Origin: Dictyostelium discoideum
Lineage: Eukaryota
Direction of reading: 5' to 3'
NCBI GenBank assembly: GCA_000004695.1
Contig: CM000154.2
Location: 2,880,001 to 2,944,000 of the forward strand
DNA length: 64,000 nucleotides
In this document: piece after piece, positions 13,954 through 15,241 of the stretch
Numbering within the stretch: position 1 is the first letter of the stretch
Layout of the letters: every line of letters starts with the position of its first letter
The notes under the pieces: model-generated
Seen by the model: only the letters and a program-made list of their open reading frames with translations
Told to the model about the DNA's origin: nothing
The model's database searches: none
Made by a program: the position numbers and the translations under genes

Positions 13954-15241
13954 TTAATGTTGAGATGCTCTGATTGCTTCTAAAATTTCATCTTTAGCTT
14001 TTTGAATTTCCTTTCTAACTTCAGTTAAAATTTCTTCTTTGAGTGATTGTAAATCTTCATTGGCTACAGTTGATGGGAGTGGAGCTGATAAGGATGGTGA
14101 AGGTGGTTTGTTTGCAGCAGCTGTTTTAGTTGCTGGTTTACTGAATGATTGTGGTGGTTTGAAAGATGTTGATGATGGGGTTGGTGCTGGAGTTGGTGCT
14201 GGAGTTGGTGCTGGAGTTGGTGCTGATGATTCTTCTTTTGGTTGAGATGCTGCTGCCTTCATTTTGGCTCTCTTGGCCATAACTTCGGCCATTAAATCAC
14301 CACCGCCACCACCACCGCTAGATTTTGGAGCTGGTGCTGGTGTTGAACCGCCTGATGATGGCTCTGATCCAGCATTGCTGGCAGCTGAATTTGCAGATGG
14401 TGTGGTTTTTGTTGGTACACCAGCGCTTTTATCAACTGTAACTGTCTTTTTAAGTCCACCCTTTGAGAAATTTTCAATTGAACCTAAAAGGGCATTTCTT
14501 CCAGTACCGCCACCTGCGGCTGGTGGTTTTGGAGCTGGTGGTGGTGGTGGTGGACCTGGTGGTTTTGGTGGAGCTGGTGGGGCAGCTGGTGGAGCTGGAG
14601 CTTGTGGAGCAGCAGCTGGTGCTTGTGGTGGTGCGACTGGTGCTTGTGGTGCAACTGGTTTAGCGATAACGGTGGATGGTGGTCTTTGTGGTGGTTGTTG
14701 TGGTTGTGGTGGTTGTTGTGGTTGTGGTTTTGGTACTTGTGGTGGTGGTTGTTGTGGACCACCTTTGAGGGATCTTAAAACATTTTCAAAACCTCCACCA
14801 AAGGTATCTGCATCTTGTTTACTTGTAAAGTTGATACCAAAATGAGTACGTTGATCAGTGAATTGATGGAAAATTTCAGAGGCTCTACTATAGACAACTT
14901 CACTCTTTACTGCAAAATTAATTAAAAAGTTATTTGGATCATCACCTGCTCTACCAATTACTCTGTAAGTGTTTGCGCCTGAATTAAAATACATTTGAAG
15001 TGTGGCTGGTACATTTGATGATGGTACCCAATTTCTAGTTTGTGGACTGTATGTAAAAACTTGTCCTGTTGCATTAAAAATTGCTGTTTCACTATAAAGA
15101 ATTTATTTTAAAAAAATAAAATTTTTTTTTTTTTTTTTTTTTTATTATCATTAATATCTTTTTTTTTTTTTGGTTTTTGGTTTTTTTTTTTGATTACCAC
15201 AAAAAAAAAAAATTCTATTAAAAAAAAAAAACTTACCTCAT
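13954..15241 (-). CDS. vasP: VASP (Ena/VASP family), 380 aa. Exons (minus strand): 15237..15241 (ATGAG), 13954..15091.
   Basis: EVH1 domain (MSETAIFNATGQVFTY...WVP...YRVIGR), then a proline-rich core (GPPPPPPAPKPP), then an EVH2 C-terminal coiled coil (LKEEILTEVRKEIQKAKDEILEAI). The 5-nt first exon ATGAG|GTAAGT joins via acceptor tttatag|TGAAACAGC. Confidence 0.85.

Follow-up and report, generated by a model that had tools for sequence, protein, structure and literature searches.

A five-nucleotide first coding exon predicted for the Dictyostelium discoideum VASP gene and its counterparts in other Ena/VASP genes

Where does the Ena/VASP protein encoded by this locus begin? In the window, by which we mean the whole 64-kb stretch of Dictyostelium discoideum DNA that was analysed, the longest plain open reading frame of the gene (13954..14994, 346 aa) starts with MYFNS. 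A sequence-only reading of the same DNA had held that this frame lacks the first 34 residues of the EVH1 domain, and that a first coding exon of only five nucleotides supplies the missing start. The ORF list agrees with the first point, the Met of MYFNS being Met35 of the spliced protein. For the second, a direct read of the minus strand found ATGAG/GTAAGT at 15231..15241 with every element in its place (here and below, a slash marks an exon-intron boundary), and a script recovered the proposed 145-bp intron ending in tttatag. The predicted gene model reads as follows.

15237..15241, minus strand: coding part of exon 1, ATGAG (ATG at 15241..15239, AG at 15238..15237)
15236..15092, minus strand: GT-AG intron, phase 2, 145 nt (donor GTAAGT at 15236..15231, acceptor TTTATAG)
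15091..13954, minus strand: exon 2, from the last base of codon 2 to the stop codon TAA at 13956..13954, coding residues 2 (part) to 380
14995..15091, minus strand: the 97 nt of exon 2 that lie 5' of Met35 and that, with exon 1, code residues 1-34, missing from the plain frame

In the proposed mechanism, a 145-nt AT-rich GT-AG intron in the pre-mRNA would split codon 2 after its second base. Because the intron falls at this point, the first coding exon gives ATGAG only, that is, the start codon and the first two bases of codon 2 (Ser). Splicing would then join ATGAG to TGAAACAGC..., the 5' end of exon 2 at 15091, and the resulting mRNA would encode a 380-residue Ena/VASP protein. Within the region inspected (13700-15600), the minus strand around the start reads ...TAATCAACA ATGAG GTAAGTTTTTT..., the 3' end of the intron is ...TTCTTTATAG (...AATTCTTTATAG when read up to 15092), and a longer read from 15091 gives TGAAACAGCAATTTTTAATGCAACAGGACAAGTT. 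A typical Dictyostelium intron has a donor near GTAAGT, an AG acceptor, a very A+T-rich composition and a length of about 100-150 nt. The VASP intron displays the features of a spliceosomal GT-AG intron, with GTAAGT...TAG at its ends, a length of 145 nt, an A+T content of 89.7% (computed by script on the minus strand) and a restored reading frame. The joined coding sequence of 1143 nt is in frame and was translated by script into 380 aa, the length that had been proposed. The predicted protein starts with MSETAIFNATGQVF (longer read MSETAIFNATGQVFTYSPQTRNWVPSSNVPATLQMYFNS...) and ends with ...EAIRASQH before the stop; its residues 1-34 are MSETAIFNATGQVFTYSPQTRNWVPSSNVPATLQ, followed by MYFNS. 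The predicted junction sequence is ...CAACAATGAG/TGAAACAGCAATT, and the predicted N-terminal tryptic peptide is (Ac-)SETAIFNATGQVFTYSPQTR. When the frame is followed without splicing, an in-frame TAA at 15105..15103 is encountered inside the intron, and no ATG lies between this TAA and Met35. The conserved coding sequence upstream of Met35 can thus be reached by splicing only.

What would the added residues contribute to the protein? The domains of the predicted 380-residue product are listed below.

14785..15087, minus strand: EVH1/WH1 domain, residues 4-104 (Pfam PF00568, E=8e-18)
Residues ~113-190: proline-rich centre dominated by P, Q and A and including GPPPPPPAP, as read from the translation
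14422..14511, minus strand: WH2 / G-actin-binding (GAB) motif, residues 196-225 (PF02205, E=1.9e-08, 34.1 bits, cut-off 23.1)
14230..14307, minus strand: F-actin-binding (FAB) region, residues 264-289, with K275, R276, K278 and K280 present (boundaries from PMC8352590)
13972..14076, minus strand: tetramerisation coiled coil, residues 341-375 (boundaries from PMC8352590)

The Pfam domains WH1/EVH1, WH2 and VASP_tetra were found in both the spliced and the plain-ORF proteins, the last as PF08776 at residues 347-376 (E=1.2e-11, 44.4 bits, cut-off 25.8). The WH1 match in the spliced protein scores 64.9 bits (cut-off 22.4) and covers positions 9-108 of the 111-position profile, as compared with 45.3 bits and positions 41-108 in the plain 346-aa frame. 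Among solved structures, the human VASP EVH1 domain (PDB 1egx, which begins MSET) matches with its residues 1-115 residues 1-112 of the spliced protein (E=2e-18), residue 1 being aligned to residue 1. The extended profile coverage and this alignment are in line with the earlier claim that the N-terminus of EVH1 is restored. The EVH1 matches in the PDB comprise VASP, ENAH and EVL at E values of ~1e-16 to 1e-18, and Homer EVH1 is also in the match list. The aromatic residues of the EVH1 polyproline-binding groove are Y16, W23 and an F in the 70s (ENAH/VASP numbering). Y16 and W23 of the model align with Y16 and W23 of human VASP, and from established EVH1 structural knowledge we take them to be part of the ligand groove. 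The first part of EVH1, including F14, Y16 and W23, falls within residues 1-34. All five defining features of Ena/VASP proteins, namely EVH1, the groove aromatics, the proline-rich centre, GAB plus FAB and the tetramerisation coil, are present in the model, and the predicted order of the domains agrees with that of Ena/VASP proteins. The EVH1 domain of such a product would bind [F/L]PPPP ligands through F14, Y16 and W23 of the restored segment; the rest would provide the proline-rich centre, the WH2-type G-actin-binding and F-actin-binding motifs and a C-terminal tetramerisation coil.

The locus is the D. discoideum vasP gene (DdVASP; dictyBase DDB_G0289541; UniProt Q5TJ65) on the minus strand. 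The VASP identity proposed in the sequence-only reading holds, with the set of WH1/EVH1, WH2 and VASP_tetra domains and the fit of published DdVASP numbering, primers and peptide in its favour. The FAB region has been placed at aa 264-289 with K275, R276, K278 and K280, the tetramerisation region at aa 341-375, and a landmark is given as '334 PSLSAPL' (PMC8352590). In the spliced model PSLSAPL begins at 334, and positions 275, 276, 278 and 280 are K, R, K and K. The primers VASP339*F/R and FAB K-E F/R of the same study match the window exactly, at 13954-13971, 14083-14102, 14238-14256 and 14275-14292. The DdGAB peptide, published as GRNALLGSIENFSKGGLKKTVT (PMC3034019), is contained in the translation of the spliced model. 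In the EVH1 domain of UniProt Q5TJ65, F14, Y16, T80 and N89 have been described (PMC11030225), and direct counting finds the same residues at these positions of the 380-aa model. In sum, all nine numbered residues and motifs, the four primers and the one peptide match; in this comparison, which is by landmarks and not by full sequence, every checkable landmark agrees and no difference from published DdVASP was found. The published numbering is compatible with the 380-aa model only, as exactly 34 residues are needed before the Met of MYFNS. Since F14 and Y16 lie inside the 34 splice-restored residues, the reference protein already has the micro-exon-dependent N-terminus in the same register. 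A full-length VASP cDNA was cloned and used in one of these studies (PMC8352590), and the fit of its numbering to the spliced model lends indirect support to the junction. Recombinant ddEVH1 binds [LF]PPPP peptides (PMC11030225). The exact 380-aa sequence had no match in a collection of 15 billion proteins. The best homologue returned was that of D. purpureum and no D. discoideum protein was among the results, which suggests that D. discoideum is apparently absent from the collection, so that the missing exact match says nothing about the gene model. A full-text literature search did not find the N-terminal peptide string or the phrase '380 amino acids'.

Is the small exon particular to D. discoideum? 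An intron at the same position is present in five dictyostelid genomes; in four of them the first coding exon is 5 nt long, reading ATGGC in H. album and ATGAG in the others. The orthologous starts are as follows.

D. purpureum (locus L001), annotated: ATGAG/GTAAGA, intron of 111 nt with 90% A+T, ..ttattag/TGAAACAGCA, N-terminus MSETAIFNATGQVFT
A. subglobosum (L002), annotated: ATGAG/GTATGT, intron of 98 nt, ..ttattag/CGAAGTACAT, N-terminus MSEVHVLVGRAQVFT
C. fasciculata (L003), annotated: ATGGCAATGAT/GTAGAT (or ATGAT), intron of 138 nt, ..ttttag/TGAAGTTCAC, N-terminus MAMIEVHIF... (or MIEVHIF...), with phase and position the same
H. album (L004), exon unannotated: ATGGC/GTATGT at 1901-1905, intron of 94 nt, ..aaag/TGAAGTACAT, N-terminus MAEVHILVGRAQVFT

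The D. purpureum orthologue (DICPUDRAFT_91862, P0001), whose N-terminus is MSETAIFNATGQVFTYNPQ, is identical to the D. discoideum model in its first 16 residues and 91% identical over the EVH1 region, and it shares the ATGAG first coding exon, the phase-2 intron and the neighbouring genes. It differs in the donor (GTAAGA versus GTAAGT) and in length (367 versus 380 aa), the latter owing to differences in the low-complexity proline-rich and linker regions. In H. album, the GenBank VASP protein (P0002; GL290984.1) is labelled 'partial', has no Met and starts EVHILVGRAQ, exactly at the intron acceptor. Addition of the exon ATGGC across the acceptor aaag/T gives MAEVHILVGRAQVF, and an in-frame TAA at 1995 (L004 1901-2000) blocks read-through. 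The first exon of C. fasciculata (GL883029.1, L003 2001-3276) is 11 nt long, or 5 nt if counted from the second ATG. The C-terminus of the C. fasciculata protein (P0003; …PSPLICQTRTKTSCLCSQAKTTSNCQPSKKELQ…) is unlike that of all orthologues and its VASP_tetra match is 'faint', probably because a 3' intron was mis-predicted or the frame is in error.

The gene order COG5 / PIG-S / VASP / RPA-like OB-fold is the same in the window and in D. purpureum, and is partly kept in H. album and A. subglobosum. The neighbours of VASP in the window are these.

11660..13699, plus strand: RPA-like OB-fold protein (REPA_OB_2 / Rep_fac-A_C)
16095..16874, minus strand: last exon of a PIG-S homologue
17974..18648 and 18798..20399, plus strand: COG5, split over two ORFs, which places an intron between them

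A crude scan of the window was also made for other short first coding exons, defined as an ATG followed within 30 nt by a GTAAGT-like donor, with an AT-rich intron next and an ORF of 100 codons or more after it. It returned VASP together with candidates of 29, 20 and 12 nt at 9778 (plus strand), 43798 (plus strand) and 34259 (minus strand), respectively.

From the sequence we infer, with near certainty, that ordinary spliceosomal removal of the 145-nt phase-2 intron joins the 5-nt coding exon of DdVASP to the main exon in vivo. How easily could ATGAG and its donor have been a coincidence? The string ATGNNGTAAGT occurs once in the 64-kb window, both strands taken together, and that occurrence is the VASP exon 1 site. 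Collecting every ATG in the 1.5 kb upstream with a stop-free path to a GT donor of the required phase gave ten candidates. Among them, only the ATGAG site combines a donor matching GTAAGT at 6/6 positions with an intron of normal length. The remaining nine nevertheless give frame-compatible ATG...GT combinations, and animal Ena/VASP genes can have alternative N-termini, as in Argopecten isoform X3 (P0008), so a different or additional upstream first exon might be spliced to 15092/15091, with ATGAG there by coincidence. Against this, all nine have weak donors (3-4 of six consensus positions) and would require introns of 864-1106 nt, and their coordinates lie in or next to the PIG-S ORF. They would place between 2 and 64 residues before the conserved Glu, and none of the nine combines the published register with the MSE start found in D. 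purpureum, A. subglobosum and human VASP. D. purpureum and A. subglobosum, by contrast, both carry ATGAG with its donor at the corresponding position. The 1.5 kb upstream contained no other plausible first exon. With no credible candidate at hand and with ATGAG and its donor kept in relatives, we reject the alternative upstream exon as very improbable.

The splicing of ATGAG to exon 2 draws further weight from the 97 nt of exon 2 that precede Met35, which look coding by several sequence measures. Their GC content is 36%, whereas that of the intron is 10% and that of the 5' flank 13%. Over codons 1-34, 32 of the 34 residues are identical between D. discoideum and D. purpureum, with six synonymous and two non-synonymous codon changes, and 7 of the 10 nucleotide differences fall at third positions. 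The EVH1 ligand-groove residues F14, Y16 and W23 are encoded by the same 97 nt. Translation of an unspliced, colinear mRNA from Met35 into a 346-aa protein whose EVH1 lacks its N-terminal part, which has in its favour that it uses the longest plain frame and still gives matches to WH1 (45.3 bits), WH2 and VASP_tetra, is effectively refuted by this coding constraint, by the functional residues and by the published numbering, and we give it a negligible chance.

Then, how old is the small first exon of VASP? In the annelid Owenia fusiformis (CAIIXF020000008.1, L006) the annotated first coding exon is ATGAG/GTGAGA at 501-505, followed by a phase-2 intron of 35,020 nt and then ...ttccag/TCAGCAG (~35526). 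In the beetle Oryctes borbonicus the protein (P0009) is labelled 'partial' and begins SEQSIASARASV (SEQS...), and the genome reads ttttttttttcag/CGAGCAA (LJIG01016183.1, L005 5990-6010). The first two letters of the annotated Ser codon 'AGC' thus belong to the acceptor AG, and its C is the first base of the true exon. The Oryctes gene would accordingly carry a phase-2 intron in codon 2, with an upstream micro-exon that the annotation appears to have missed; no ATGAGGT was found within 6 kb upstream of the acceptor. The human proteins VASP, ENAH and EVL (1egx, 1evh, 1qc6) resemble DdVASP in their MSE(T/Q) start, in the conservation of Y16 and W23 and in the order of EVH1, proline-rich region and EVH2 (GAB, FAB and tetramerisation). 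The identity of the DdVASP and human EVH1 domains is only ~35%, and ddEVH1 carries F14 as an additional aromatic in the groove and is without the R81-type pocket (PMC11030225). On the basis of the four dictyostelid 5-nt exons, the C. fasciculata intron, the Owenia exon and the 'partial' proteins of H. album and Oryctes, we lean slightly towards the view that the ATGAG exon and its phase-2 intron are ancient in Ena/VASP genes, going back to the common ancestor of Amoebozoa and animals, and have repeatedly been missed by predictors. Alternatively, introns may have been gained independently at the same site, an AG/G proto-splice site that directly follows the start codon.

Work published since 2002 has cloned the correct 380-aa DdVASP, knocked it out, purified it and numbered its residues. 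The description of the small exon as missed by ORF calling, made in the earlier reading, is right for a naive six-frame listing and does not extend to the literature, whose reference protein already contains the 34 residues. The gene model is therefore already known: the analysis re-derives the published 380-residue DdVASP, a well-studied Dictyostelium actin-filament elongation protein, and reveals nothing new about vasP. Only mildly new are that the micro-exon appears ancient and that it was missed in at least two public 'partial' annotations. The remark that micro-exons are easily missed is a fair one, as the two faulty public annotations of H. album and O. borbonicus VASP illustrate. The lesson is real although familiar. 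In intron-containing AT-rich genomes an exon only a few bases long can hold the start codon, in which case the N-terminal domain is cut short by a six-frame ORF listing and even by some annotation pipelines. As the piece of VASP lost in this way carries two to three of the EVH1 groove aromatics, the domain would falsely look defective in a truncated model.
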